Shown here piece by piece: positions 7,963-55,146 of a DNA stretch of 64,000 nucleotides. The notes under the pieces were generated by a model, which was not told the origin of the DNA, did not search any database, and saw only the letters and a list, made by a program, of their open reading frames with translations. The stretch is from Centroscyllium fabricii (taxonomy: Eukaryota), in NCBI GenBank assembly GCA_051313645.2, contig JBNRSN020000031.1:21452001-21516000 (forward strand), read 5' to 3'. The stretch's first letter is position 1, and every line of letters starts with the position of its first letter. The position numbers and the translations under genes are program-made.

Positions 7963-8025
7963 AAGAGATCAAAGAAAATTGAGGGTGAAAACATTTATGT
8001 CAGGCATAGCAATTTAATGTTGGAG
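7963..8025 (+). CDS. EPB41: Protein 4.1R exon 16 (spectrin-actin-binding cassette), KRSKKIEGENIYVRHSNLMLE
   Basis: 63 nt; strong polypyrimidine tract with gcag acceptor; GAG|gtttgt donor; GENIY.RHSNLMLE is the hallmark peptide. Confidence 0.97.
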
Positions 8026-13268: not shown

Positions 13269-13448
13269 GATCTAGACAAAACCCAGGATGAGATAATGAA
13301 ACATCATGCCAGTATCAGTGAACTGAAACGCAGCTTTATGGAGTCTGTACCTGAACCGCGCCCCAGCGAATGGGACAAACGGCTCTCGGTGCACTCGCCT
13401 TTTAGAACGTTGAATATCAACGGGCAAGTTCAATCTGGTACAGAAGGA
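13269..13448 (+). CDS. EPB41: Protein 4.1R exon 17 (SAB domain)
   Basis: aatag acceptor, GGA|gtaagt donor, 180 nt; DLDKTQDEIMKHHASISELKRSFMESVPEPRPSEWDKRLSVHSPFRTLNINGQ is nearly identical to mammalian 4.1R. Confidence 0.98.
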
Positions 13449-13519
13449 GTAAGTTTGATTTTTTTTTTCTTCTTCTGCTTAAAAAGTTAATGTTCTGATA
13501 GTGCACCACAGAACGACCT

Positions 13520-14110
13520 TTTAAAGAGCGGTTTAAAATGATAAAAGAATTCAATAGAGTAGATACAGAGAAGCTATTTCCTCTGGTGTGGGGAATCCAG
13601 AACAAAAGGGCACAATCTTAAAATTAGAGGTAGGACATAAGAAATAGGAGCAGGGGTAGGCCGTTCGGCCCCTCGAGCCCGCTCCGTTGTTCAGTAAGAT
13701 CACAGCTGATCTGATCTTGGCCTCAGCTCCACTTTCCCTGCCTGCTCCCCAGAACCCTCGACTCCCCTGCAGCTCGAATATCTGTCTATCTCAGCCTTGA
13801 ATATATTGACTGACTCGGCCTCCAAAGCCCTCTGGGGCAGAGAATTCCAGAGATTCACGACCCTCTGAGGTAGGCCATTCAGGAGAGAGATCAGGGAACA
13901 CTTTTTCCACTCTTGAGGGCTTGTGGAAATGTGGAATATACCCTCCGAAAAAGCTGTGAATGTTGGGGGGTCAATTGAGATCGGCAGATATTTATGAGGT
14001 AAGGATATGGATCCAAGGCGGATAAATGGAGTTGAGGCGCAGATCAACCATCATCTAATTTAATGGCAGAACAGACTCGAGAGCCTGAGTGGCCTACTCC
14101 TGTTCCTATT
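13520..14110. mobile_element. Nested CR1 3' fragments: a + strand fragment interrupted by a - strand fragment at about 13636-13870
   Basis: QRVVNLWNSLPQR on minus; CR1 tail motifs on both strands. Confidence 0.75.
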
Positions 14111-14167
14111 ATGCAGCTTTTTTTTTTTAGCAGAAGTTTAGAAGCAAGTGGCCTGTATTCCCCTCCG

Positions 14168-14700
14168 TTGTGGTTAGCACTGTTGTCTCACAGCACTGGA
14201 GACCCAGGTTCAAATCCGGCCTCTGGTGACTCACCAGGCTGATACCTGGGATGGCAGGAATGACGTATGAGGAGAGACTGGGTAGACTGGGTTTATACTC
14301 TCTGGAGTTCAGAAGATTGACAGGGGATCTCATTGAAACATATAAAATTCTAACTGGTCTGGACAAACCTGATGCAGGAAGAATGTTCCCGATGATCAGA
14401 GAGTACAGAACCAGGGGTCTAAGGATAAGGGGTAACTCATTTAGGACAGAGATGAGGAGGAATTTCTTCACCCAGAGAGTCGTGAACCTGTGGAATTCTC
14501 TACCACAGAGGGGGGTGGAGGCTAGTTCATTGAATATATTCAAGAAGGATCTGGATGTATTTCTTAAGGCTAGAGGGATCAAGGGATATGGGGAGAGGGC
14601 AGGGACAGGGTACTGAGTTTGGATGATCAGCCATGATCTCATTGAGTGGCGGAGAAGGGTCGAATGGCCGACTCCTGCTCCTATCTTCTATGTTTCTATG
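14168..14700 (+). mobile_element. SINE head fragment joined to a CR1/HER1 3' fragment
   Basis: tRNA-like head at 14168-14231, then ORF MAGMTYEERLGRLGLYSLEFRR... and tail. Confidence 0.85.
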
Positions 14701-14782
14701 GAGCAGGACGAGGCCATTCAGCCCCTGGAGCCTATTCCGCCATTCAATCAGATCACGGCTAATCCGTATCTCACTCCATCTT

Positions 14783-15168
14783 GGGTGGCACGGTGGCACA
14801 GTGGTTAGCTCTGTTGCCTCACAGCTATGGAGACCCGGGTTCAAATCCAGCCTCGGGTACTATCTGTGTGGAGTTTGCACATTCTCCCCGTGTCTGCGTG
14901 GGTTTCCTCCGGGTGCTCCGGTTTCCTCCCACAGTCCAAAGATGTGCGGGTTAGGTTGATTGACCAGGATAAATTGACCCTTAGTGTTAAGGCGATTGAC
15001 TATGTGGGGTTACAGGGATAGGGTGTCGATGCAGGCTCGATAGGGATCGAGTGATATGGGAAGAGTGCAGGGGCGGGGTACTGGGTTTGGAGGATCAGCC
15101 ATGATCTCATTGAATGGCGGAGCAGGCTCGAATGGCCTACTCCTGCTCCTATCTTCTATGTTTCTATG
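14783..15168 (+). mobile_element. HE1-like V-SINE
   Basis: Head, V domain and tail. Confidence 0.9.
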
Positions 15169-15862
15169 GGATGGAGTGAACTTGAGGGAACAAAGATGAT
15201 TGTAGGAGTCTAGCAATGGAGATCATTTTTTATTTTAATTTATAGCTGCTTGTAAAAGTTCTTGTTTAAAAGTGTCTGTCATCGGAACTATATTATGTTA
15301 AATCAAGCCAAGGATAGTATCCCGTTTTATTCGTAGACATGTTAATCAATAGCTCTCTCATTTAATTGAATCTTTTTTGGTGGGTGTTCATTATTTCCAA
15401 GTTATTTTAACATGAAGACTTCAAGATTAAATCCGAAGAAATGAAGTTCCACTTTCGCAAACTACTTACTAACTTTATTCTAGCACATGAGTCATTGCAA
15501 GGCTGGGCAAAGAATACTAATGGTATAAAGCACGTTGGGCTAAGTTTTATTATTTTCATCAGCATTGTCACTCATTTCTTGGCTATATAATTCAGATTTC
15601 AATTGTTGGCAGGTGAATCTGTAAATTATGATTTTCTGCTTTTTAGTCACCATTCCAATCCATGTTCAGGAGAACCAAGGAAGGAATCACATCCTTTGCT
15701 GACAAAGATGTCATTACATCTTTGACCAGTAGTAAAATTTGCTTTTAAAATGCCGCTAAATATTGTTGGTAGCCCTGCAAAAAAAAAATTTTTTAATTCT
15801 GCCCTTTAGCAAAGGTGTTTTTAAAATTTGTCTTTTGGTTGATAAACTGGATAAATTAAGTA

Positions 15863-16178
15863 CAGGTACACAATCCCTTATCCGAAACCTTTGGGACCGG
15901 ACGGGTCTCGGTTTTCGGGATTTTTTGGTTTTCGGATGGTGCGCATTGCCGTGTTGGCGGCCCAGTGCACGGGCGGGGAACAGCTTATCAACGGTTCATT
16001 TCCTCAGCACGGCATCGACAGCAACCTGTAACCTTGCCTTAAGGTAAAAATATCTTTTTTCTCAGTGATAAATGCTGCAGCTGGTCACCTCGTTCAATTT
16101 ATTTAAGAAAAATATAGTTATTTTGGCGCAACTCGGGTTTTCGGTTTTCGGAGTTGCAGTTAAGGGATTGTGTACCTG
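15863..16178. mobile_element. MITE with TA duplication (Tc1/mariner-pogo type, distinct subfamily)
   Basis: Perfect 18-bp TIR CAGGTACACAATCCCTTA flanked by TA on both sides. Confidence 0.9.
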
Positions 16179-17127
16179 TACTGTGTTTCAATAAACATTC
16201 AAAAGGTTTATCGACCACTCAGACATCAAAATAGTGGCTTAGAAAATTTGCCTGCAGTAGAGGAAAAAGGAATCCATTCCGGGTATTGCTCTGATCCCTT
16301 GATAATTAAAAAGTAAAATATATTCCATTCACAGATTAAAATCCCTTCATTCCTGCGAAGGGAGAAGTAGGGGGTGTCTCTCAGTAAAACAACTGTGGTG
16401 GGCATTGTGAGGGGAGGTTGTTTTTAAAATGTGCCCCTCTTGGTGAGAGATGTCATCACTGCAAAATTAAAGATCGTTGTACCCTGTCTGCATCAAGAAG
16501 CCCCACCTGTGTATGGTACAAGTCCGCTGCTTTCTTGGGAAAGATTCCTTTACTCTGCCCAATATTCCTTTACTCTGCCCAATAATATACCTCAAGCTCC
16601 AAATTTGGAAGAGCCTGCATCTACACCAGTATGGCATTTGCATATCTCATAATAGTTCACGTTTTGACCTCTTCTCTTGCGAGAGTCAGTGCAGTATCAG
16701 TGCGATTAAGTAGATTCAAATGCAATCAGATGGGATTGAGATGTTACATAGGACATCAATCAGAACTGGATTTGAACCTAGCTGTAGAAAGGACAGATAG
16801 ATTTTGAACTGTTCTGCTGCATAAAGCCCTGAAACAGTCTTGTTGAAAATATTTACCTTCAGCTAAATTCTTTTCTGTGACCTGTTTAGTATTCATGTCT
16901 AATGTTCTTTCCATGTTTATGGTTGTGTTCTACAAGTTCAACAGAGGACACTTTTCTTGAATATATACCTTGCTTTATGTGATCTTTTGTTTTCTTTTAA
17001 TCAATTAAACCCCCAATCATATTGCAATGCGATAGATGCATCACCTAGTTGGAATCCAGCTTTAAAAAGTGCTAGTACATATGTCAAGCTCGTATTGCTG
17101 TGGCTGCCAAGTCTATATTGATAATGC

Positions 17128-17250
17128 GGAGGTGCCGGTGTTGGACTGGGGTGGACAAATGCAAAAAGTCACACAACACCAGGTTTAAAGTCCAACGTTT
17201 TATTTTAAATCACAAGCTTTCGGCGCGTCTGCCCCTTCGTCAGGCAAAGA
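17128..17250 (-). mobile_element. Penelope-like terminal fragment with a minimal hammerhead-like motif
   Basis: Minus strand reads CTGACGA-AGGGGCAGACGCGCC-GAAAGCTTGTGA; related sequence at about 2789-2845 and 26062-26100. Confidence 0.55.
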
Positions 17251-17454
17251 GAAACTGAAGTCAAAGATCACACACATGGGGGAGGGGAGAAATTTGATCC
17301 CATACATCCAACCCTAGAGCACACAAGCATATTAGCATACCTTAACACCTCAGTCTGCGAACAATGGGGCACAATTGCAAAACACAGTGTGATTTTTTTT
17401 TCCCTTTTTTAAAGTCTATATTGAACCATGTTACTGAGAAAGAGGTGAACTAAG

Positions 17455-18200
17455 GGGAACAATGTCAGAGAGAAGAGAGCTGTTGGTGATAATACTGAGC
17501 ATTGGACCAAAGAAAGTTGTGTGGTCAGAATTTGGGTTAGAAATGGGTCAACGGTATAGGAGGTCGGTGCTGACATGAGTTTGATGAGGGCTGAAGCTGC
17601 ACAAGTGAGAAGCTAGCTAGTGACGGAGAGCTGTGGGAAGCTGAGGCAGTTGACTGGATAGTCTGGAGGGAGCAGAGGAAGGTGGTCAGGAGAGGCAGGT
17701 TCTTGTCGAGGAGTTTGGAATTGTTCTTGCCCGCAAGGATAATCCTGGAGTAGTAAGAGCATTTGGCGACAGAGAGTGAAACGTGCTAATTCTTAATGCT
17801 GTCTCTCAAGGTCTGATTTGGGGATGGTCAGGCCAGTTGTGCACCATGCACCTTCATGTCTGCAGCCCTAAGTGTTAAAGAGGCAGAGTTGTACCAGGGA
17901 AATGTTGGGGGTGAGATTGTTGAAGCAAAAGCAAAGAAATGTTGAAAAAGTCGACCGTGGCAGCAATTCTGTGGTAGGCCAAGTGCAGGAGAGGGGAGAG
18001 GGGGGAGGTGGGACTATTCCACAGGGAATGAGTGAGAGGGGAGTTTTTCCTCCTAGGGTGGAGGGTAAAGTAGAAGATGTAAGATGAGCAAGTGACCAGA
18101 TAAGGTGGCATGGCCTTCTGATGGCAGGGCTAAGGACTTGACTGTGGGTGTGAGCTTGGCAGACAGGGTGCCTGGAGTGGAGCAATGAGAATCCATAGGG
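17455..18200 (-). mobile_element. Old degraded LINE fragment (L2-like)
   Basis: Purine-rich + strand and decayed L2-like coding traces; weak. Confidence 0.45.
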
Positions 18201-19475
18201 CACTCAATCCTGAGATTGCAGCCAAATAAACAGACCAGTAGAGGAGTAGCAGAAGGCAGTTAAATGAATTGAGATGGAGAATTGTGATGGCCGAAGCCGA
18301 ATCGGAAAGTAGGCCATTGAAATAGAGTGGACCATTTGACAGTTGACAGAGAGGGAAAGGAGCCCTGGACCAGAGCAGCAGCCAAAGCGCACACGCAGGT
18401 AAACAAAGAAGTGGCCCTTGTGTTATAAATGCAAATGTTAGATTGGATTGGAACCAATTGGCCCACAAGGCCACTAATGTACAGTTTTCATGAAGAATGG
18501 CAGAATGTGACTCACATTGCACTGGTAAAAACCCTAGAATCGCATGTATAAAAAAAACAGAATTTGACTTCTTCAGCCACCAAACTAGTGGCCCATATTG
18601 TTAACGTGATTCCCTAAAACACCAGTAAAAATCCCAAAACTTAACTTAATAAAAATAGAATTTGACTTACTTGGTCATAAACCAGTTGCACTTTCTATAA
18701 CTTCATTTCACCATTTCCTGATCGGTTTAGAGTTTGTCAGTACACTTAAGAAAAATGCTGAATACTTCAGAAGACAAAAAAAATCCCATTCTTGATCCAG
18801 GTTGAGGTTTCTCATTGGCCGTGTGACTAGTGCTGAGACTGGAACTAGGGTCAGCTGTTTTAGCGCTAATTTCCAGTTACCTGCTCATATAAGATATGCC
18901 AAGTCAAGTCACCATTTCTTTGCAGCCAGTATCCACGTCATGTTCAGGAAACTGAATGAGCTGAACACTATTCACCTTGTTTAGGTGATGCTGTAATTCT
19001 GCCAGTAAAATTCTATCAATAACATCTTTCCTCTGAACTTGGATTTTGAGTGAAAAACACTTTGATTTGCAACACAGGATAAAAATATGAAATAATAGGC
19101 CACCATTTTTCTTAATTAGTAGTAGAAGTTCTTGTCTTTTAAAAAAAAAAAGTATTAAAAAAAAACAAAATCTATTTGAAAAGTAAAATAAAACCTCAAA
19201 GAACAGTTGATATGTTCCTCGAGATGTAAGGTAGCAATCACATGATGATGACTTTTTAAGGAAAATTAAAAGGAACTAACCCTCCCTCAGCGGGATTTAA
19301 TGACTTCAGATCATTATCCACATGGTATGTGATAGAGATGTTTTAAGGAATTAGCTGATCTATATACTTGATAAGAAATCAATCTCGGTGTTGCCATCAA
19401 AACAAGAGTGCATATAATAAATATGTATCCTGTGTATTTGAAGTATCTAAAATGACTAACTTTATGTATGTACAG

Positions 19476-19526
19476 GCCATGGTGATTTCAGGCTTACGCC
19501 CTGAAAAGAAGCTTGATGAGCCAGAG
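19476..19526 (+). CDS. EPB41: Protein 4.1R cassette exon (equivalent to exon 17A), AMVISGLRPEKKLDEPE
   Basis: Branch point TGACTAAC (19453-19460), tacag acceptor, GAG|gtaaag donor; 51 nt like mammalian 17A, ending in PE. Confidence 0.85.
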
Positions 19527-20085
19527 GTAAAGTTGTTACAGTTGTGCTGTGAATGCTAATATTTTATTTGCTCAAGCAGCCCTCATCAATGCTGAATTGT
19601 ATTTTAGTTGCTAGACAACAGGCATCAGTTTTTCAATTCTTACAGTTCCCAAAACTTAACAGTGACGACTTCCACTGCCACAGCTTTAAGAATGCCTACT
19701 AAACAATGCATGGCTGGTTAAAGGTTGCATGAAGAAATGGCCATACATTTTCCAAAAAAAGCTACCAAAATGCAAGTGAACCCTGTTCTGTTATAATATT
19801 TTTACATTTTATTCTTTTTTTTTTTTTCCTTTCCTCCTTGTTTCTGAAAATACACATCACTCTTGCTATCATTCCCTTTTTAAATTTTGAAGTTCAAAGA
19901 TAAAAATCCACGTAGGAGAATCCCTCAAACACAAATCTTCACTACATTCTTTTAATTTTTCCCCCTTCCTCTGCCACTTTTGTGCCCTTTTCTTTTTGCA
20001 CACTTTTTTTTAAAATTTCAAACTTAGTTTTCCATCTTGCATTTGTTCATCTATTTTTTCTCTTGGTCTTCTGTCATGAAAGCAG

Positions 20086-20337
20086 ACAAAGAAAATGCCT
20101 CTGTTAGTACAGGAAGAAGATCAGATAAAAGGAAAGCAGGAAACACCAGGGACTGCGCTTGCACCAGAAAGCAAAGAAGAAAACTCCCAAAAGGTTTCCA
20201 TTCAGATTCCTGATGACAAACCTAAAACAAAACCTTGTCGCCTCTATCCTATTGCACTTCAGCGCCCTCCCATTCCTTTCGTAATGTCATTCCTTCTCGT
20301 GTTTGTTCTGACAATTTGGTGGCTTATCTTAATATGA
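20086..20337 (+). CDS. EPB41: Candidate alternative terminal exon of 4.1R encoding a C-terminal hydrophobic (tail-anchor-like) segment
   Basis: Long pyrimidine tracts plus AAGCAG acceptor; phase 0 and open for 83 codons; ends IPFVMSFLLVFVLTIWWLILI*; possible internal donor AAG|gtttcc at 20193. Confidence 0.6.
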   Translation, partial: TKKMPLLVQEEDQIKGKQETPGTALAPESKEENSQKVSIQIPDDKPKTKPCRLYPIALQRPPIPFVMSFLLVFVLTIWWLILI

Positions 20338-21012
20338 GCAGAGTTTTCATTGGAAGCTGTAACCTAAATCTTTCAGGCCTTGTTCTTTTTTGAGCTGTAT
20401 TTTTTAATTCTACGTTGTACTGATGAATTCCTCTCTTTAAATGAAAACCCTTGTCTAATTTATATTTCCTACTTATAAAACTGTGTGCTGACTGTTATTT
20501 ATTTCTTTAATTCTGTTACATTGAGTGGAATGATTTTTCCTCTTCACTTGTAAAGCCGTCCACCTGTATTTGTTCTGTGGCATGCTGTTGCCATTTGTAT
20601 TTTGATTCAATGCAGTATTAATGGAAATTGTAACTTTTGCCAAACTGCTTCATATTTCTCATCCCGTCGACCTGCTGGTTTAAAGGGCATTTATCTAACT
20701 GCTGTCTCGCAAAGGGTTTAAAAGATAGCGATTGCACTCTTTGAATTTCTGTCAAACTTATGGTATTTATGGAATAATGCCACAAACCCCTTTCAGTGTG
20801 GATATGGTGTATGTATTTCTTTATCCTGGTTTTTAAATGAATACTTTAATTTTGTATACTGTATATATAATATATTTTAAAATGGTGCTATGCTGTAAAC
20901 AGACGATTGTATTTTGAACATTACTGACAGAAGAGTCTAATATATTTAGCATTTACAGCAAAAATACATTTTTTTCAGCTTTAGTTGATGAGAAGAGGTG
21001 AATAGCCAAGTA

Positions 21013-21348
21013 CAGCAAACTTTTTTTTAAATCCGGCACCGACTGGACCGGCGTGGTGCCGGTTTATCAAAAAGTCCGGATTACAGAGAGGTATAGTTAA
21101 AAAGTATGAGAGCCCCGTACGCAACAACAAATCCAGGCGTCCTTGTTGCTTAGCAACAGGTGCAGGACCCCCGGCCACAAGATCCGGCGTCCCTGTTGCT
21201 AAGCAACAGGTGCAGGAACCCTGGTTACATGGCCACAGATCCAGCAACGGCCACTAATATGAAGTAAAACTTACTTGAACCAACGCCTGAATTTTGTTGG
21301 TTAAGAGATTTCCGGTCATTTAGGTACTGGTAAATCGAGAGTTTCCTG
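21013..21348. mobile_element. Degenerate MITE (CAG...CTG, TA flanks) with internal X-box-like repeats
   Basis: TA at 21011-12 and 21349-50; imperfect TIR CAGCAAACT/CAGGAAACT; internal repeated GTTGCT(T/A)AGCAAC units. Confidence 0.7.
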
Positions 21349-21462: not shown

Positions 21463-24400
21463 CAGGTTGAGCACCAGTAATCCGTTACCCAAAAAACCGG
21501 CAGCTTCGAACGTCTGGCAATAATTCCCCCGACTGCGCCGTGCATGCGCTAAATGGCACCCGCGATTGATGCTTCGGTGACTGATCTGCGCCTGCGCCGC
21601 CAAACGGTGAGTGCATGCGCAGATCATTCACTAGCCCTCCGAGCCCAGCCTCACCTCTCCGAGTCCAGCCCCGCCCAGCCCTGCCCAACCTCTCTGAGCC
21701 CAGCCCTGCCCAACCTCTCTGAGCCCAGCCCTGCCCAACCTCTCTGAGCCCAGCCCTGCCCAACCTCTCTGAGCCCAGCCCTGCCCAACCTCTCTGAGCC
21801 CAGCCCTGCCCAACCTCTCTGAGCCCAGCCCTGCCCAACCTCTCTGAGCCCAGCCCTGCCCAACCTCTCTGAGCCCAGCCCTGCCCAACCTCTCTGAGCC
21901 CAGCCCTGCCCAACCTCTCTGAGCCCAGCCCTGCCCAACCTCTCTGAGCCCAGCCCTGCCCAACCTCTCTGAGCCCAGCCCTGCCCAACCTCTCTGAGCC
22001 CAGCCCTGCCCAACCTCTCTGAGCCCAGCCCTGCCCAACCTCTCTGAGCCCAGCCCTGCCCAACCTCTCTGAGCCCAGCCCTGCCCAACCTCTCTGAGCC
22101 CAGCCCTGCCCAACCTCTCTGAGCCCAGCCCTGCCCAACCTCTCTGAGCCCAGCCCTGCCCAACCTCTCTGAGCCCAGCCCTGCCCAACCTCTCTGAGCC
22201 CAGCCCTGCCCAACCTCTCTGAGCCCAGCCCTGCCCAACCTCTCTGAGCCCAGCCCTGCCCAACCTCTCTGAGCCCAGCCCTGCCCAACCTCTCTGAGCC
22301 CAGCCCTGCCCAACCTCTCTGAGCCCAGCCCTGCCCAACCTCTCTGAGCCCAGCCCTGCCCAACCTCTCTGCGCCCAGCCCTGCCCAACCTCTCTGAGCC
22401 CAGCCCTGCCCAACCTCTCTGAGCCCAGCCCTGCCCAACCTCTCTGAGCCCAGCCCTGCCCAACCTCTCTGAGCCCAGCCCTGCCCAACCTCTCTGAGCC
22501 CAGCCCTGCCCAACCTCTCTGAGCCCAGCCCTGCCCAACCTCTCTGAGCCCAGCCCTGCCCAACCTCTCTGAGCCCAGCCCTGCCCAACCTCTCTGAGCC
22601 CAGCCCTGCCCAACCTCTCTGAGCCCAGCCCTGCCCAACCTCTCTGAGCCCAGCCCTGCCCAACCTCTCTGAGCCCAGCCCTGCCCAACCTCTCTGAGCC
22701 CAGCCCTGCCCAACCTCTCTGAGCCCAGCCCTGCCCAACCTCTCTGAGCCCAGCCCTGCCCAACCTCTCTGAGCCCAGCCCTGCCCAACCTCTCTGAGCC
22801 CAGCCCTGCCCAACCTCTCTGAGCCCAGCCCTGCCCAACCTCTCTGAGCCCAGCCCTGCCCAACCTCTCTGAGCCCAGCCCTGCCCAACCTCTCTGAGCC
22901 CAGCCCTGCCCAACCTCTCTGAGCCCAGCCCTGCCCAACCTCTCTGAGCCCAGCCCTGCCCAACCTCTCTGAGCCCAGCCCTGCCCAACCTCTCTGAGCC
23001 CAGCCCTGCCCAACCTCTGAGCCCAGCCCTGCCCAACCTCTCTGAGCCCAGCCCTGCCCAACCTCTCTGAGCCCAGCCCTGCCCAACCTCTCTGCGCCCA
23101 GCCCTGCCCAACCTCTCTGAGCCCAGCCCTGCCCAACCTCTCTGAGCCCAGCCCTGCCCAACCTCTCTGAGCCCAGCCCTGCCCAACCTCTCTGAGCCCA
23201 GCCCTGCCCAACCTCTCTGAGCCCAGCCCTGCCCAACCTCTGAGCCCAGCCCTGCCCAACCTCTGAGCCCAGCCCTGCCCAACCTCTGAGCCCAGCCCTG
23301 CCCAACCTCTGAGCCCAGCCCTGCCCAACCTCTGAGCCCAGCCCTGCCCAACCTCTGAGCCCAGCCCTGCCCAACCTCTGAGCCCAGCCCTGCCCAACCT
23401 CTGAGCCCAGCCCTGCCCAACCTCTGAGCCCAGCCCTGCCCAACCTCTGAGCCCAGCCCTGCCCAACCTCTGAGCCCAGCCCTGCCCAACCTCTGAGCCC
23501 AGCCCTGCCCAACCTCTGAGCCCAGCCCTGCCCAACCTCTGAGCCCAGCCCTGCCCAACCTCTGAGCCCAGCCCTGCCCAACCTCTGAGCCCAGCCCTGC
23601 CCAACCTCTGAGCCCAGCCCTGCCCAACCTCTGAGCCCAGCCCTGCCCAACCTCTGAGCCCAGCCCTGCCCAACCTCTGAGCCCAGCCCTGCCCAACCTC
23701 TGAGCCCAGCCCTGCCCAACCTCTGAGCCCAGCCCTGCCCAACCTCTGAGCCCAGCCCTGCCCAACCTCTGAGCCCAGCCCTGCCCAACCTCTGAGCCCA
23801 GCCCTGCCCAACCTCTGAGCCCAGCCCTGCCCAACCTCTGAGCCCAGCCCTGCCCAACCTCTGAGCCCAGCCCTGCCCAACCTCTGAGCCCAGCCCTGCC
23901 CAACCTCTGAGCCCAGCCCTGCCCAACCTCTGAGCCCAGCCCTGCCCAACCTCTGAGCCCAGCCCTGCCCAACCTCTGAGCCCAGCCCTGCCCAACCTCT
24001 GAGCCCAGCCCTGCCCAACCTCTGAGCCCAGCCCTGCCCAACCTCTGAGCCCAGCCCTGCCCAACCTCTGAGCCCAGCCCTGCCCAACCTCTGAGCCCAG
24101 CCCTGCCCAACCTCTGAGCCCAGCCCTGCCCAACCTCTGAGCCCAGCCCTGCCCAACCTCTGAGCCCAGCCCTGCCCAACCTCTGAGCCCAGCCCTGCCC
24201 AACCTCTGAGCCCAGCCCTGCCCAACCTCTGAGCCCAGCCCTGCCCAACCTCTGAGCCCAGCCCTGCCCAACCTCTGAGCCCAGCCCTGCCCAACCTCTG
24301 AGCCCAGCCCTGCCCAACCTCTGAGCCCAGCCCTGCCCAACCTCTGAGCCCAGCCCTGCCCAACCTCTGAGCCCAGCCCTGCCCAACCTCTGAGCCCAGC

Positions 24401-25478
24401 CCTGCCCAACCTCTGAGCCCAGCCCTGCCCAACCTCTGAGCCCAGCCCTGCCCAACCTCTGAGCCCAGCCCTGCCCAACCTCTGAGCCCAGCCCTGCCCA
24501 ACCTCTGAGCCCAGCCCTGCCCAACCTCTGAGCCCAGCCCTGCCCAACCTCTGAGCCCAGCCCTGCCCAACCTCTGAGCCCAGCCCTGCCCAACCTCTGA
24601 GCCCAGCCCTGCCCAACCTCTGAGCCCAGCCCTGCCCAACCTCTGAGCCCAGCCCTGCCCAACCTCTGAGCCCAGCCCTGCCCAACCTCTGAGCCCAGCC
24701 CTGCCCAACCTCTGAGCCCAGCCCTGCCCAACCTCTCCGAGCCCAGCCCCGCCCAACCTCTCCGAGCCCAGCCCCGCCCAACCTCTCCGAGCCCAGCCCC
24801 GCCCAACCTCTCCGAGCCCAGCCCCGCCCAACCTCTCCGAGCCCAGCCCCGCAACTCCGAGCCCAACCTCGCCGGGCCTCTCCGAGCTGATCCCGGGCCT
24901 CCCCGAATGACAAGCGCATGCGCAGACCACTCAAAATGGCCGGCAGCCTTTCGCGGCGACCATTTTGAATGATCTGCGCATGCGTCGCCGGACGGCTAGC
25001 GCATGCGCAGATCATTCAAAACGGCCGCCAGGCCTTCCGTGGCGTCAGGGCGAAAATAAAACTGGAAGCGCACGGTTCCCGGCGAGCAGGCTGGCCCTGT
25101 GCGGGAGCCGGGAATGGGAATGTTGAGCGGAGTTCCTTACCCGGCTTTGCTGCTGCTGGAGTCAGTGGATGAGCGGCTGGCTGAGTGAGTGAACAGCTCC
25201 GGCTTGTGTCTCGGCAGTACTAGCATATCCAGTGAGCACTCACTCTAAAAATAGCTCCCCTCCCCCTGCACCAATCCGCACATACACATGGCCCCACTCA
25301 GCCTCCTCTTTTGGACTTTTCCTGCAATGTTCGGCGGCCATTTCCAATGTTGTGCGCATGCGCGCGGCCTTTTTGCATGGTGCGCGCATGCGCACTGACC
25401 GACTTCATTCTGCCGGTTTTTTCACTTTCCCGGCACGGGCCTGGTCCCGCCCGTGCCGGATTTCCGGTGCACAACCTG
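21463..25478. mobile_element. MITE of the CAGG...CCTG family expanded to 4 kb by an internal minisatellite
   Basis: TA|CAGGTTGAGCACCAGTAATCCG ... CGGATTTCCGGTGCACAACCTG|TA; ends match the copies at 30752 and 34940. Confidence 0.9.
21640..24870. repeat. GC-rich minisatellite: 25-bp unit GAGCCCAGCCCTGCCCAACCTCTCT switching to a 23-bp unit near 23240
   Basis: Directly visible near-perfect tandem array of roughly 130 units. Confidence 0.99.
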
Positions 25479-44044: not shown

Positions 44045-44206
44045 AAATTAATAGAAAGCCTATATGGACATTTGCGTACCAGTGAAAAGTCAACAGTATT
44101 CCAGACAACCTACTTCCCATATGCAACACCTGAGAAGACCATCCGTGAAGGACAGACACGGACTCCAAATAAATCTGCTTTGCTTTGCTCTATTTCACAC
44201 CCTCAG
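44045..44206 (+). CDS. Candidate 162-nt cassette exon of 4.1R; an alternative acceptor at 44055 opens a second frame ending at 44306
   Basis: Pyrimidine tract of about 40 nt, ctgac branch-like motif, cctag acceptor, CAG|gtgcta donor; phase 0/0 and open. Confidence 0.45.
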
Positions 44207-46471: not shown

Positions 46472-46876
46472 AATGTGGATGACAGTCTGAAATCAGAACT
46501 GGAAGAGCAGTCAGAGGGTGTAAAAGTTGATCACAAGGCAGAAATAGAGGGACTGAAGCTGGAAAATGGCTTCAACACCAGCCAAGTGGCCGACCCATTG
46601 GCGTCTCCACAGAGACGGGATTTTATTCCTTCCTCTGTGAGTAGCAGTGAGGAGGAGGAAGAATTGTACCTCCTTCAGAGCAAGCACAACAGGTCAGAAA
46701 TAGGTCTGGATATGCAGGCTGAGGCTTCAGAGGAGATGACAGCAAAGGCCCTGTCGAGCTCTGCTGCTCCTCAACTAAACTACCATCTGAAGGAAGGGGA
46801 GCAGAGAGAACAACCTTTAAAGATAAATGACGATGTGTCTCATTACCATGAACCTCCTCAGCTAATCTGCTTTCAG
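46472..46876 (+). CDS. EPB41: Protein 4.1R large cassette exon (17B-like, U3 region)
   Basis: ttgtag acceptor, CAG|gtaatg donor; 405 nt open in phase 0/0; acidic, low-complexity peptide ending in FQ like mammalian 17B; directly before exon 18. Confidence 0.8.
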
Positions 46877-49273: not shown

Positions 49274-49399
49274 CCGCCACTTGTAAAAACTCAAACTGTG
49301 ACCATCTCTGACATGCCCAACTCTGAAAATGAAATTGCAACCAATGAAGTTCCTGTTGTTCACACTGAAACGAAGACCATCACCTATGAAGCAGCACAG
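49274..49399 (+). CDS. EPB41: Protein 4.1R exon 18 (CTD)
   Basis: aatag acceptor, CAG|gtttga donor; PPLVKTQTVTISDMPNSENEIATNEVPVVHTETKTITYEAAQ. Confidence 0.97.
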
Positions 49400-49489
49400 G
49401 TTTGAAATTATTCTGAGGTGAACTTGTCTCGTTTGTAGCTTGAAGATCTAATTAAGATTTGTGTTTCAGTTTGACATCTTTTTTAGGGG

Positions 49490-49850
49490 GTGCTTCATAG
49501 CTCACTGAACTTATCCAGTGAATGAACTGAGCCAAACAAATTGGGAAGCTCCCAGGTTTGATCCCCAGTCTATGCTGTTAGCTGATGTCAGCCAGCAGGG
49601 CTTCACCAGTTGGCCTCCGTGCCCCTGAGTTAAAATGGCAAAAACTGCTCGGAGCTCCTGTTCCTGATCACGATCCAGTAACCCCTATTGGAAAGTGCGC
49701 ATCTGTGGGCATCGGGTGAGGAGTGTTTCAGGGTCAGCTGTGATGGCCGCTATTGTCAAATAGCCTGCTCACAATGCTCATACATTGCTGTATGGCCATG
49801 ATAGCATATAATCTGCTCCCAGGTATCTGCCAGTAACCATGGCTAGCAGG
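49490..49850 (+). mobile_element. Old tRNA-derived SINE-like repeat (related copies at about 60435-60830 and 61350-61527)
   Basis: B-box-like CCCAGGTTTGATCCCC and shared motifs AGCTGAT(G/C)TCAGCC and TCAAATAGCC across copies. Confidence 0.45.
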
Positions 49851-50093
49851 TGTATAAGAGACTCTCTGTTTAATCTGCTTCTGAATTTTCCTCCCGGCAA
49901 GGAAGTGACTGGGGAGCTGGCCATGTGAAGAATTTCAAAACTGCATCTGTGCATTGTTGTTTCAGTTCTACTGCCCTACAATTTTATTTGAAAACAGAAA
50001 ATAGCTTTCCCGCAAAACTAACATTAACGGATTTACTTTAGCACCCTATTAATTAGAGCTTTGTCACCGCTGTAGTGCTAGTTATGAGTCATA

Positions 50094-50883
50094 GGGCTGG
50101 ATTTTGCCAGCCCTGGGGAGGCGGGTTTGGTGGCAGGACTGCCGGGAAAATGGCAGAATTTGGGGGCGGGTGCCCAACCCGCCTCCATGGCATCTTACCA
50201 GGAGGCGGGTAGCCGACCCACGCCGGGTCCCGCCTCCTCAAGGGGATTAATGCCAATGAGCTGCCCGTTAACAGGCAGTGGTTTGGCTAATCCCTATTTT
50301 GAGCCCTTGAGTATGGGCTTCCCGATGGCTCCGAACCTCGCCAGGGTCAGCGAGGCGGGCCGTCGATCTGTGGGGGTCGGAGGGGCCGAGATGTCCGGTG
50401 TGCAGATGAGTAATGGGTGCATGTGTGCAGAGATAAGTGTGTGTAAAGTGTTTTAATAAGTTTTACTTACCTTTTACTTCTTCCTGCAAGCTTCCTCCTT
50501 TCAGGTCTCGGGAATCCCTCAGCTCACCGGCACAGAAAGCAGAATGGCTGCTGAACTGTCAAAAGCTGCAGCCTCCTGCTTCCTGGTCAGGAAGGCTTTC
50601 TAATAGAGTCTTGAGTAAAGACACAACTTAGAAGACAGATTGTCAGAGTTTGACAGCTTCACAGAGCTGTCAAACGGTGACATTTCATCTGTCAAACGCT
50701 CTTGACAGAGGAAACGTCACTCGCTGGCGTCAACTGTAACTGGCTTTCCCATAATTGGCCTGCTAAGCCTGCTGGGTGGGCTTAACAAGGTCAATCCAGG
50801 GAAAATAGCGTGGGTTGGCCACAAGTCGACCTAACAAGTGGGAATCCCGCCTCCAAAAGCTTCCCATTGACAAAATCGAGCCC
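50094..50883. mobile_element. Non-autonomous PIF/Harbinger-like element
   Basis: ATA duplication; 16-bp TIR GGGCT(G/C)GATTTTG(C/T)CA; inserted in the CR1 tail AGTCATA|GAGTTGTACAGC (uninterrupted equivalent at 47445). Confidence 0.85.
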
Positions 50884-52570
50884 ATAGAGTTGTACAGCAC
50901 AGAAAGAGGCCCTTCGGCCCATCGTGTCCGCGCCGGCCATCAAGCCCTGTCTATATTCTAATCCCATTTTCCAGCACTTGGTCTGTAGCCTTGTATGCTA
51001 TGGCGTTTCAAGTGCTCATCTAAATGCTTCTTGAATGTTGTGAGGGTTCCTGCCTCCACCACCCTTTCAGGCAGCGAGTTCCAGATTCCAACCACCGTCT
51101 GGGTGAAAATGTTTTTCCCCTTATCCCCTCTAAACCTCCCGCCCCTTATGTTGAAACTATGCCCCCTTGTTATTGACCCCTCAACTAAGGGGAAAAGTTC
51201 CTTTCTATCTACCCTATCTGTGCCCCTCATAATTTTGTACACCTCAATCAGGTCCCCCCTCAGCCTTCTCTGCTCCAAGGAAACCAACCCCAGCCTGTCC
51301 AGCCTCTCTTCATAGCTGAAGCGTTCCAGCCCAGGTAATATCCTAGTGAATCTCCTCTGCACCCTCTCCAAAGCAATCACATCCTTCCTACAGTGTGCTG
51401 ACCAGAACTGCACACAGTTTTCCAGCTGTGGCCTAACTAGCATTTTGTACAGCTTCATCATAACCTCCCTGCTCTTATATTCTATGCCTCGGTTAACGAA
51501 GGCAAGTATCCCATATGCCTTCTTAACCACCTTATCTACCTGTCCTGTCTTCAGGGATCTATGTACATGCACACCAAGGTCCCTCTGATCCTCTGTCTTT
51601 CCTAGGGTCTTACCATTCATTGTGTATTCCCTTGCCTTGTTAGTCCTTCCAAAATGCATCACCTCACACTTTTCAGGGTTAAATTCCATTTGCCACTGCT
51701 CTGCCCATCTGACCAACCCATCTATATCGTCCTGCAGACTGAGGCTTCCCTCCTCGCTATCCACCACCCCACCAATTTTGGTGTCATCAACGAACTTACT
51801 GATCATACCCTTTACATTCATATCCAAATCATTAATATAGACTACAAACAGCAAGGGACCCAGCACCGATCCCTGCGGCACCCCGCTGGACACAGGCTTC
51901 CAGTCACAAAAACAACCTTTGACCATCACCCCCTGCTTTCTGCCACTAAGCCAGTTTTGGATCCACTGTGCCAAGGTGCCCTGGATCCCATGGGCTCTTA
52001 CCTTCTTGACCAGTCTCCTATGCGGGACTTTATCAAAAGCCTTACTGAAATCCAAGTATACCACATCCACTGTCCACACGCCTAGTCACCCCCTTGAAAA
52101 ATTCAATCAAGTTGGTCAGACATGATCTTCCCTTGACAAAGCCATGCTGACTATCCTTGATTAATCCTTGTCCCTCCAAGTGAATACTAATTTTATCCCT
52201 CAGAACTTTTTCCAGTAATTTCCCTACCACTGATGTTAGGCTCACTGGCCTGTAATTCCCTGGTTTATCCCTACTACCCTTCTTGAACAATGGTACCACG
52301 TTAGCTGTTCTCCAGTCCTCTGGCACATCCAGAGAGGATCTGAAAATTAGTGTCAGTGTCCCTGCAATCTCCTCCTTTGCCTCGCACAGCAGCCTGGGAT
52401 ACATCTCATCCGGGCCTGGGGATTTATCCACTTTTAAGCCTGCTAAAACCGCTAGTACCTCCTCCCTCTCGATGGTAATATGTTCAAGTATATCGCGGTC
52501 CCCCTGCCTGATTTCTATGCCTACATTGTCCTTCTCCTTAGTGAACACAAATGCAAAATATTCATTTAAA
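50884..52570 (-). mobile_element. CR1 LINE ORF2 (RT) fragment, well preserved
   Basis: ORFs of 168 aa and 373 aa with KSPGPDEMYPRLL, GNYRPVSLTS, YLDFSKAFDKV, GVPQGSVLGP, FVDDTK. Confidence 0.96.
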
Positions 52571-52659
52571 AATGATGTTGCCTATTCATTGTCCTTTTTC
52601 TTAAGCTGATTTTTGATGCATTCTAGTCTGTGTCTGTTACCTGTAGAATAACATTGTTC

Positions 52660-53230
52660 TACAGAATCCACTATTCTGATGCTCTGCTGGCTGGCCTCCC
52701 ATCTTCCACAATCCATAAACTTCAGCTCTTCCAAAACGCTGCTGCCCGTATCCAAACACGCACCAAATCCCGTTTACCCATCGCCCTGTGCTCGCTGACC
52801 TGCAGGTCCACCAAGGTCTCAATTTTAAAAATTCTCATCCTTGTGTTCAAATGCCTGCATGGCCGTGGCACTCCCTACCTCCACAGCCTTCTCCAGCACT
52901 GCAACCTTCCAAGAACTCTGTGTTCCTCCAACTCTGGCCCATTGTGCAACCCCTGCTCCTTTTGCCTTAACGTTGGCAGCCATGCCTTCATCCATCCAGG
53001 CCCAAAGCTCTGGAATTCCCTCCCTGAACCCCTCTGCCTCTCCACCTCTCTTTCCTCATTTAAGATGCTCCTTAAAACCTACCTCTTTGACCAGCTTTTT
53101 CGTCATCTGTCCTGATATTTTCTTCTTTGGCTGGGTGTCAATTTTTGTCTGCTTCCACTGCTATGAAGCACTGGTGATGTTTTACTATACTGTATTAAAA
53201 GTGCCATATAAATGCAAATTGCTGTTACTA
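52660..53230 (+). mobile_element. L2-clade LINE 3' fragment
   Basis: LLAGLPSSTIHKLQLFQNAAAR...KILILVFKCLHG...LWNSLP...FKMLLKTYLF; tail ...ATATAAATGCAAATTGCTGTT. Confidence 0.85.
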
Positions 53231-53390
53231 AGTGGATTTTTTTTAATGATGCTTTTTCGCGGGTATTGTAGACTCGCCCTGATTTTCTAAATTCATTCTC
53301 TGGATCTGGGCGTCGCTGGCAATATATAACCACCACTGTGCACCCTGTTTAATGAACTTCTCAATAGTCGTATGTTGTAATTTGTTGCAG

Positions 53391-53486
53391 ACGGATGATG
53401 GTGATTGTGAGCCTGGGGTATTGATGAGCGCTCAGACTATCACATCCGAGACCATCTCCACCACCACAACCACTCAGATCACAAAG
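53391..53486 (+). CDS. EPB41: Protein 4.1R exon 19 (CTD)
   Basis: tgcag acceptor, AAG|gtaagg donor; TDDGDCEPGVLMSAQTITSETISTTTTTQITK. Confidence 0.97.
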
Positions 53487-53641
53487 GTAAGGAAAAATTA
53501 TTAAAACATTTGAAGGTTTCCGTTGACTATTTGTTGGTACTGTGTGACAAAAAATGGCATATCTACCTTTTCTATTGTAGTGCATTTTATAAGATGTGTG
53601 AATTTAGATTGGAAGGAGTTTTTTTGTAATTATTAAGGAGG

Positions 53642-54035
53642 TAGAAACATAGAAACTAGGAGCAGGAGTAGGCCATTCGGCCCTTCGAGCCTGCTCCGCC
53701 ATTCAATGAGATCATGGCTGATCATCCAAACCCAGTACCCCACCCTTGCCCTCTCCCCATATCCCTCGATCCCTATCGAGCCAACATAGACACATATCCC
53801 ACCCTATCCCCGTAACCCCACATATTCAATCCCCCTAACACCAAGGGTCAATTTATCATGGCCAATCAACCTAACCCGCACATCTTTGGACTGTGGGAGG
53901 AAACCGGAGCACCCGGAGGAAACCCACGCAGACACGGGGAGAATGTGCAAACTCCACACAGATAGTCACCCAAGGCTGGATTTGAACCCGGGTCTCCAGT
54001 GCTGTGAGACAACAGTGCTAGCCACCGTGCCGCCC
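53642..54035 (-). mobile_element. HE1-like V-SINE
   Basis: Full-length copy. Confidence 0.9.
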
Positions 54036-54179
54036 ACTGCTTATCTTCAACCAGCCATCAGGAGCTGTACGAGAGTGAGACCAGTATGGCTCAACATCTC
54101 AATTTATATTCCCACATTTTTTCACCAAAATGAATGCTTAAGTGCAGTCGAATTAAAGCTGCATTTTTGCTTTTTTCAG

Positions 54180-54260
54180 ACTGTTAAAGGGGGAATTTCA
54201 GAAACCAGAATTGAGAAACGAATTGTAATCACAGGGGATTCCGATGTTGACCACGATCAG
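54180..54260 (+). CDS. EPB41: Protein 4.1R exon 20 (CTD)
   Basis: tttcag acceptor, CAG|gtgaaa donor; 81 nt; [27 protein letters not shown]. Confidence 0.98.
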
Positions 54261-55044
54261 GTGAAAATGATTTTTTTTTACTGTGCAGTGAATTACTAGA
54301 TTCCATTTATAAAATATGTTCTTGGATTAGGATATTAATCTTCATTAAAACAAATAATCTATTAGTACCTCTCAGATGCACCTGATATTGTTGGTGAGTA
54401 ACTTATGATTTCATAATTAACAACTTGTGCTTAGATTGCATTATTAATTAGTTACTTCCAGAGAATTTTACCCCCTTTAAAAAAATTATTAGATTTCCTC
54501 ACAGCATAAACCATGACGTAGCCAAGAGGAAGTAACCTAATCTCTGGCTTCCACCAATATCAGTGTTCATCCTGATGCCAGAGCAGTGTAAAAATGACCA
54601 CAGAAGACTTCTTCTGCCTTAAGGAGGCTGTCCAAGTAATGCCCCATCCTTCCTTTAGCTCTGAATTAGTAACGTTCAGAAGATTTCTAAGTATAGAATT
54701 GCAATCATTCTAGCCTGTGGTGCAGTGTTGTGCTGCACCTGCACTCTTACTTTCATTTAAACCTGCTTCAGACTGAAATTACCAGTTTGATCCAAGTTGA
54801 CCTTTTAGTGGGGTTTTTTCTGTGTTGCTCAACTCCAGGCACAACATTTTAGTCGGTGAACATTTTGAATTCGTCTTTTTTTTTAAAGTTACATTTGTAC
54901 ACTCTGAAGAAATGGAAAACACAAATCACACTTATAAATAATCAACACGTTTGCAGCACCAAACTAGAGCAACTGCACAGTTAGGCAAATGCGTTAAAAT
55001 TTAGAGAATTGTGTCTCTTTTTTCACGTTCTTGTATTTTGGCAG

Positions 55045-55146
55045 GCTTTGGCACAAGCCATCAAAGAGGCCAAAGAGCAGCATCCAGATATGTCAGTGAC
55101 CAAGGTAGTGGTACATCAAGAGACAGAGATAGCTGGGGAGGAATAA
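55045..55146 (+). CDS. EPB41: Protein 4.1R exon 21, last coding exon (exon ends at 55152)
   Basis: ggcag acceptor; [33 protein letters not shown]; CAG|gtaaat donor 6 nt after the stop. Confidence 0.98.

Follow-up and report, generated by a model that had tools for sequence, protein, structure and literature searches.

A stretch of 83 codons in EPB41, the gene for protein 4.1R, of the shark Centroscyllium fabricii is very probably a functional alternative last exon. Its use would exchange the CTD of 4.1R for a disordered linker and a terminal helix, and this would likely give a tail-anchored form of the protein.

The exon and its surroundings in the 4.1R gene

The window, meaning the whole stretch of 64,000 nt that was analysed, holds the 3' half of EPB41, with the FERM exons lying beyond it. 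Exons were mapped by tblastn with shark 4.1R proteins in combination with splice flanks, and exon 17 showed 98% identity to shark and chimaera protein 4.1. The following features were obtained, with the basis of each in brackets.

7963-8025, forward strand: equivalent of EPB41 exon 16, first part of SAB (tblastn; phase 0)
13269-13448, forward strand: EPB41 exon 17, SAB core, upstream donor for the proposed last exon (98% identity; 17 to tail in paddlefish X12)
19476-19526, forward strand: equivalent of exon 17A, a 51-nt cassette (many shark models; before the tail in catshark, stingray and paddlefish X11)
19707-19731, forward strand: two TGCATG elements in the 559-nt intron (motif count)
20080-20085, forward strand: tandem AAG/CAG acceptor, exon start at 20083 (with an additional Gln) or 20086 (sequence; stingray X12/X13, paddlefish X11/X12)
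20086-20337, forward strand: very probable alternative last exon, coding part of 83 codons and stop (sequence; orthologue models)
20263, forward strand: second in-frame acceptor, giving a candidate 24-residue tail (pyrimidine fraction 0.77; 0/291 proteins)
20272-20334, forward strand: predicted C-terminal transmembrane helix, about residues 63-83, at the protein end (Kyte-Doolittle hydropathy, AlphaFold2, invariance)
20338-20990, forward strand: putative 3' UTR (alignable in 3 other organisms)
44045-44206, forward strand: 54-codon cassette exon, skipped by the tail isoform (tblastn, splice flanks)
46472-46876, forward strand: exon 17B-like cassette, skipped by the tail isoform (tblastn, splice flanks)
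49274-55146, forward strand: exons 18-21 (CTD) at 49274-49399, about 53.4 kb, 54180-54260 and 55045-55146, lost in the tail isoform

The original prediction had placed an open frame of 83 codons about 560 nt after the 17A-like exon, behind a tandem AAG/CAG acceptor and in phase 0 with exons 17 and 17A. All of this was recovered: the frame covers 20086-20334 and is followed by TGA at 20335-20337, the intron measures 559 nt and ends in the tandem acceptor, and exons 16, 17 and 17A are each a multiple of three. The candidate exon is single copy in the 7.2-Gb genome, both by DNA and by protein search. An in-frame, pyrimidine-rich acceptor at 20263 had been overlooked; it is used in none of the 291 4.1R proteins surveyed below. 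In the intron after 17A, TGCATG, which we take to be an RBFOX-type motif, was observed twice against 0.2 expected (P = 0.016, without correction for the several motifs in the scan), and these two elements may hint at muscle or neural regulation.

Several side observations concern the neighbouring exons. Read-through of the 17A donor (19527-19559) would give a 10-residue end closing in CCEC, a possible lipidation signal, and chimaera model P0200 carries a similar end, LSCCEP, after exon 17. Exon 17A itself has a short form of 12 residues in paddlefish and hummingbird models and a 14-residue form in two ray genera; in the window (19476-19526) no GT is present at the internal position equivalent to the short-form donor. 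The 54-codon cassette at 44045-44206 is conserved in sharks, rays and chimaera. In whale-shark model P0173, read-through of its donor leads to a moderately hydrophobic end (Kyte-Doolittle 1.75), and the corresponding end in the window is not hydrophobic. The 17B-like exon at 46472-46876 has 135 codons versus about 140 in other sharks and shows a short in-frame deletion.

Orthologous isoforms and the age of the exon

Orthologous isoforms were surveyed with exon 17 as the query. The best 120 of 7236 matches, together with cluster members (15 of the 29, 23 and 24 in three clusters), amounted to 291 4.1R proteins from 32 named species, i.e. 22 cartilaginous fishes, 6 ray-finned fishes and 4 tetrapods. 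Among the matches listed, the tail exon forms the C-terminal end in 5 of the 291 proteins and 3 of the 32 species. These are RefSeq models, namely X10 of the catshark Scyliorhinus canicula (XP_038652208.1), X12 and X13 of the stingray Hemitrygon akajei (XP_072884557.1/558.1) and X11 and X12 of the paddlefish Polyodon spathula (XP_041096528.1/529.1), all of them automated predictions entered as unnamed 'isoform X' records. Their last exon is orthologous to the one in the window, with junctions and stop alike.

An alternative last exon with its own stop, as had been proposed, is seen both in the sequence of the window, by its in-frame acceptor, and in five orthologue models, where it is joined to upstream exons. 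Equivalents of the two predicted junctions, 19526 to 20086 and 13448 to 20086, occur in these models: exon 17A is joined to the tail in catshark, stingray and paddlefish, and exon 17 directly to the tail in paddlefish X12. In the case of paddlefish, X11 has the order 17, 17A and tail exon with the Gln present, and X12 passes from 17 to the tail exon with the Gln absent. In the case of stingray, the sole difference between X12 and X13 is one Gln, precisely as the tandem AAG/CAG acceptor predicts, so that both acceptors are used. RefSeq variants separated by 3 bases at an acceptor are as a rule derived from aligned reads. Thus, going by RefSeq practice, the one-Gln difference at the stingray tandem acceptor implies read-supported junctions. 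The orthologue tails contain neither a stop nor a frameshift, and none of the 291 proteins is spliced out at 20193.

The tail-exon isoform was absent from the covered members of 29 of the 32 named species (within the best 120 of 7236 matches and partial clusters), which suggests that its use is probably rare or confined to certain tissues. When the tail alone served as the query, homologue searches gave no match, because its carriers are non-representative members of 90% clusters.

Conservation was then considered at two depths. Tail identity to the window is 86% in catshark, 77% in stingray and 55% in paddlefish; across the 4 species 38 of the 83 tail columns are invariant and the stop is in register. 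In the same alignment of 4 species, the invariant columns include 12 of the last 20 residues versus 3 of 19 in the mid-linker, which is also the site of a 3-residue gap in paddlefish. Relative to ray, identity is 77% for the tail versus 59% for 17A and 67% for 17B; relative to sturgeon or paddlefish, it is 53% versus 29% and 30%, respectively. Judged by these identities, the tail has changed less than the accepted cassettes 17A and 17B over either distance. With a close relative the picture is different. Here 11 substitutions in the 252-nt frame stand against 14 in the 559-nt intron, so that the frame is no better conserved than its flanks, and 6 of the 9 changed codons are non-synonymous. None of the 11 indels falls into the frame, which is only suggestive (P = 0.09). 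In terms of sequence conservation, the deep comparison supports the exon, whereas the shallow one does not. A contig of another organism is gap-free over 20107-20330, with six unlisted substitutions among which a stop is possible; its loose end, in the same frame, reads Phe-Val-stop versus Leu-Ile-stop in the window, i.e. two hydrophobic swaps with the stop in register.

Since the tail is conserved with paddlefish and its stop is in register, the exon is older than the split between sharks and bony fishes, which took place more than 400 million years ago. The original prediction had underestimated this age, as the exon is common to sharks and a bony fish. Two paralogous 4.1 genes were found in the genome; the search did not recover a third one that was expected. 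A profile of the tail had no match in these two paralogues (100 kb covering SAB to CTD), so that the exon looks specific to 4.1R.

A second, different last exon that also omits the CTD follows 17/17A in models of paddlefish (P0075/P0267), tarpon (P0081) and hummingbird (P0096). Its conservation extends from ray-finned fishes to one bird, and it ends in a basic-hydrophobic LR..FFLS motif; paddlefish carries both CTD-less last exons. A 3-sequence profile of this exon had no significant match in the window (best E 0.017). A match of the bird tail at 20229 was rejected as off-frame and weak (E 3.9), and the profile of that tail family gave no significant match. An internal hydrophobic run in chimaera model P0205 was likewise set aside; it lies within SAB, breaking up the domain, and resembles an intron wrongly predicted as coding.

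The hydrophobic end and competing readings

The last 21 residues are without charge, in line with the uncharged hydrophobic end that had been described. The final 19 residues have a mean Kyte-Doolittle value of 2.74, the highest among 770 stop-free segments of at least 40 codons when all six frames of the window are considered, and a value of 2.3 near the segment end is reached by 3 of the 770. The basic stretch said to precede this end is found in the window, where the net charge is +3, but amounts to just +1 in paddlefish. In all five orthologous isoforms, a hydropathy scan gave values of 2.6-2.7 in the tail versus at most 1.65 in the best window of the body. By the same scan, without a dedicated predictor, the N-termini are not hydrophobic (first-40 windows at most 0.77) and neither a signal-peptide-like nor a further transmembrane-like segment is present (5/5).

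AlphaFold2 modelling of the tail from a 5-sequence alignment, of low confidence overall (mean pLDDT 59), gave disorder up to residue 63 and a single helix at 64-83 (pLDDT 76-95). A conserved helical face of the tail was not significant (P = 0.2). The sequence has the layout of a tail anchor, with a single predicted hydrophobic helix, about 20 residues long, as its C-terminal end. A FERM-SAB form lacking the CTD had been postulated, and Pfam domains of three orthologous isoforms agree: FERM_N/M/C, FA and SAB are present and 4_1_CTD (PF05902) is absent (3/3), with the CTD still encoded by the gene at 49274-55146. For the tail itself, Pfam has no family, the ESM Atlas gave no usable match (the paddlefish C-terminus led to SAB/CTD clusters under 0.9 only) and PDB sequences gave chance matches only (E 0.53).

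It is conceivable that the exon is spliced and translated and that its hydrophobic end acts as a protein-binding helix or as a C-terminal degron, the latter resulting in a short-lived CTD-less 4.1R. Ser68 and Thr76 are invariant inside the helix, which shows that specific residues are kept beyond the needs of bulk hydrophobicity. For a degron, the conserved 60-residue linker would be superfluous. We consider this alternative unlikely and a membrane anchor the better description of the helix.

To a second alternative we assign a slightly smaller probability. Here a transcript of Centroscyllium fabricii would read through the 17A donor to a stop 10 codons on and carry the region only as 3' UTR or as a retained intron, and the tail exon would be used rarely or no longer. 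Among sequencing runs, none recorded as RNA contained the stretch. Contigs of four runs from other organisms contain no splice joint, but contigs show presence and not absence and the RNA status of the runs is guessed, so that neither result counts as evidence on the use of the exon. In contigs of two guessed-RNA runs from other organisms the sequence passes from 17A into the intron without a splice. One of them aligns colinearly with 19300-20989, consistent with pre-mRNA, with DNA or with a transcript that retains the intron. The substitution density relative to the close relative, which is not lowered in the frame, points in the same direction. On the other hand, acceptor, frame, stop and helix are intact in the window and the exon is spliced in three orthologue model sets. 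Moreover, the runs may be DNA or pre-mRNA, contigs drop rare forms, and intron retention and splicing to the tail exon can coexist rather than exclude each other.

The putative 3' UTR can be aligned with 3 other organisms, and indels set in directly past the stop. Its proposed motifs were located correctly, but none exceeded Markov shuffles of the same stretch: the ARE nonamer TTATTTATT at 20495 (P = 0.16), the Pumilio-type TGTATATA at 20860 (P = 0.11) and AATACA at 20963 (P = 0.22 for all poly(A) hexamers). No AATAAA or ATTAAA occurs between 20338 and 21500. With no canonical hexamer and motifs at chance level, the 3' end claimed near 20970 is putative. Contig ends do not mark a 3' end either, since two contigs reach 367 nt past 20989 and the fourth run, probably genomic DNA, extends about as far (372 nt).

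Just past the putative 3' UTR lie two insertions, 21013-21348 and 21463-25478, with terminal inverted repeats and TA duplications, which are presumably Tc1/mariner-like. Contigs of two other organisms lack the first insertion. A GC-rich tandem array of 3.3 kb lies within the second, and a similar element is found at about 15860-16180.

A 108-nt cassette that keeps the CTD, made through the internal donor at 20193, is very improbable: the AAG|GTTTCC proposed there is present and in frame, but it is weak and used by 0/291 proteins, and conservation past it is at least as high as before it (23/47 versus 15/36 invariant columns).

A probable tail-anchored 4.1R and its possible role

In the model that we favour, exon 17 with or without 17A would be joined to 20083 or 20086 and translation would stop at 20337, as transferred to Centroscyllium fabricii from orthologue gene models. 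Polyadenylation in the following intron would then pre-empt the exons 24-35 kb downstream. Judging by the domains of the orthologues, the product would consist of headpiece-FERM-FA-U2-SAB, about 60 flexible residues and a 20-residue helix at its end. Predicted insertion is post-translational, via TRC40/GET into the ER, with all domains cytosolic. This prediction derives from a strongly hydrophobic helix without basic residues behind it; according to the accessible part of PMC5214336, capture by TRC40/GET is favoured when the C-terminal segment is helical and highly hydrophobic, and basic residues behind the segment divert proteins from the ER. In this position SAB would couple spectrin-actin straight to the bilayer, with FERM still binding the tails of membrane proteins.

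According to the accessible part of PMC2148212, binding of NuMA requires exons 20-21, and these exons suffice for it. As these exons are lost, the NuMA site would be gone and spindle and nuclear roles would be barred. Regarding the destination, the ER/SR or Golgi is predicted to be slightly favoured over all else, the plasma membrane is plausible but less likely, and mitochondria are improbable. A short helix with a bulky aromatic C-terminal half generally goes with the ER/SR or Golgi, and the lean in this direction follows from such a helix here.

In textbooks, 4.1R is a peripheral adaptor whose access to the membrane depends on glycophorin C, band 3 or a similar protein. The accessible part of PMC3166722 likewise describes an adaptor bound to transmembrane proteins, e.g. 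glycophorin C and band 3. Exons 17a/a' and 17b are tissue-specific according to the accessible part of PMC2148212, and the isoforms known from there share with the tail form the gene, the domain order and the alternative exons between SAB and CTD. The tail exon differs in that it is terminal, removes the entire CTD and brings a predicted membrane anchor.

In the case of USP19, a change of the last exon leads to soluble or ER membrane-bound isoforms (accessible part of 10.1101/2020.07.01.181883). The likeness lies in a last-exon switch between a soluble and an anchored form; USP19 is, however, an enzyme and not a cytoskeletal adaptor, and it is likened by the type of switch and not by tail sequence. 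Cytochrome b5 and TC-PTP are similar soluble/anchored last-exon cases. Within the FERM family, FRMD3 is single-pass according to the accessible part of PMC11687992. Compared by description only, FRMD3 and FRMD5 resemble the tail form as FERM-family proteins with a single transmembrane segment. Their anchor is constitutive, they are not known to have an SAB domain and residues follow the helix. They are also separate genes, whereas the 4.1R anchor would be optional and terminal.

A transmembrane 4.1R isoform was not found in the literature searched, which included the accessible parts of PMC10887211, PMC8408529, PMC3166722 and PMC2148212 and had most subscription literature outside its scope; papers on the RefSeq tail isoforms were not found in it either. 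A tail-anchored 4.1R is thus without a description that we could find, but it is of a known type, the splice-switched tail anchor.

If the tail-anchored form is true, the spectrin-actin skeleton would gain an attachment that needs no receptor, possibly to internal membranes. Should the exon survive in zebrafish or mammals, antibodies and assays directed at the CTD would have missed the tail form; if it is absent from both, it would represent a lost ancestral design. A further and speculative idea, which we think rather doubtful, is that an integral-membrane 4.1R is ancestral to jawed vertebrates and that its exon persists unnoticed in teleosts and tetrapods, fastening spectrin-actin directly to the membrane of the ER/SR or Golgi, with FERM holding on to proteins of the plasma membrane. 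Were this the case, it would amount to a splice-switched tether between ER and cortex in muscle or neurons.
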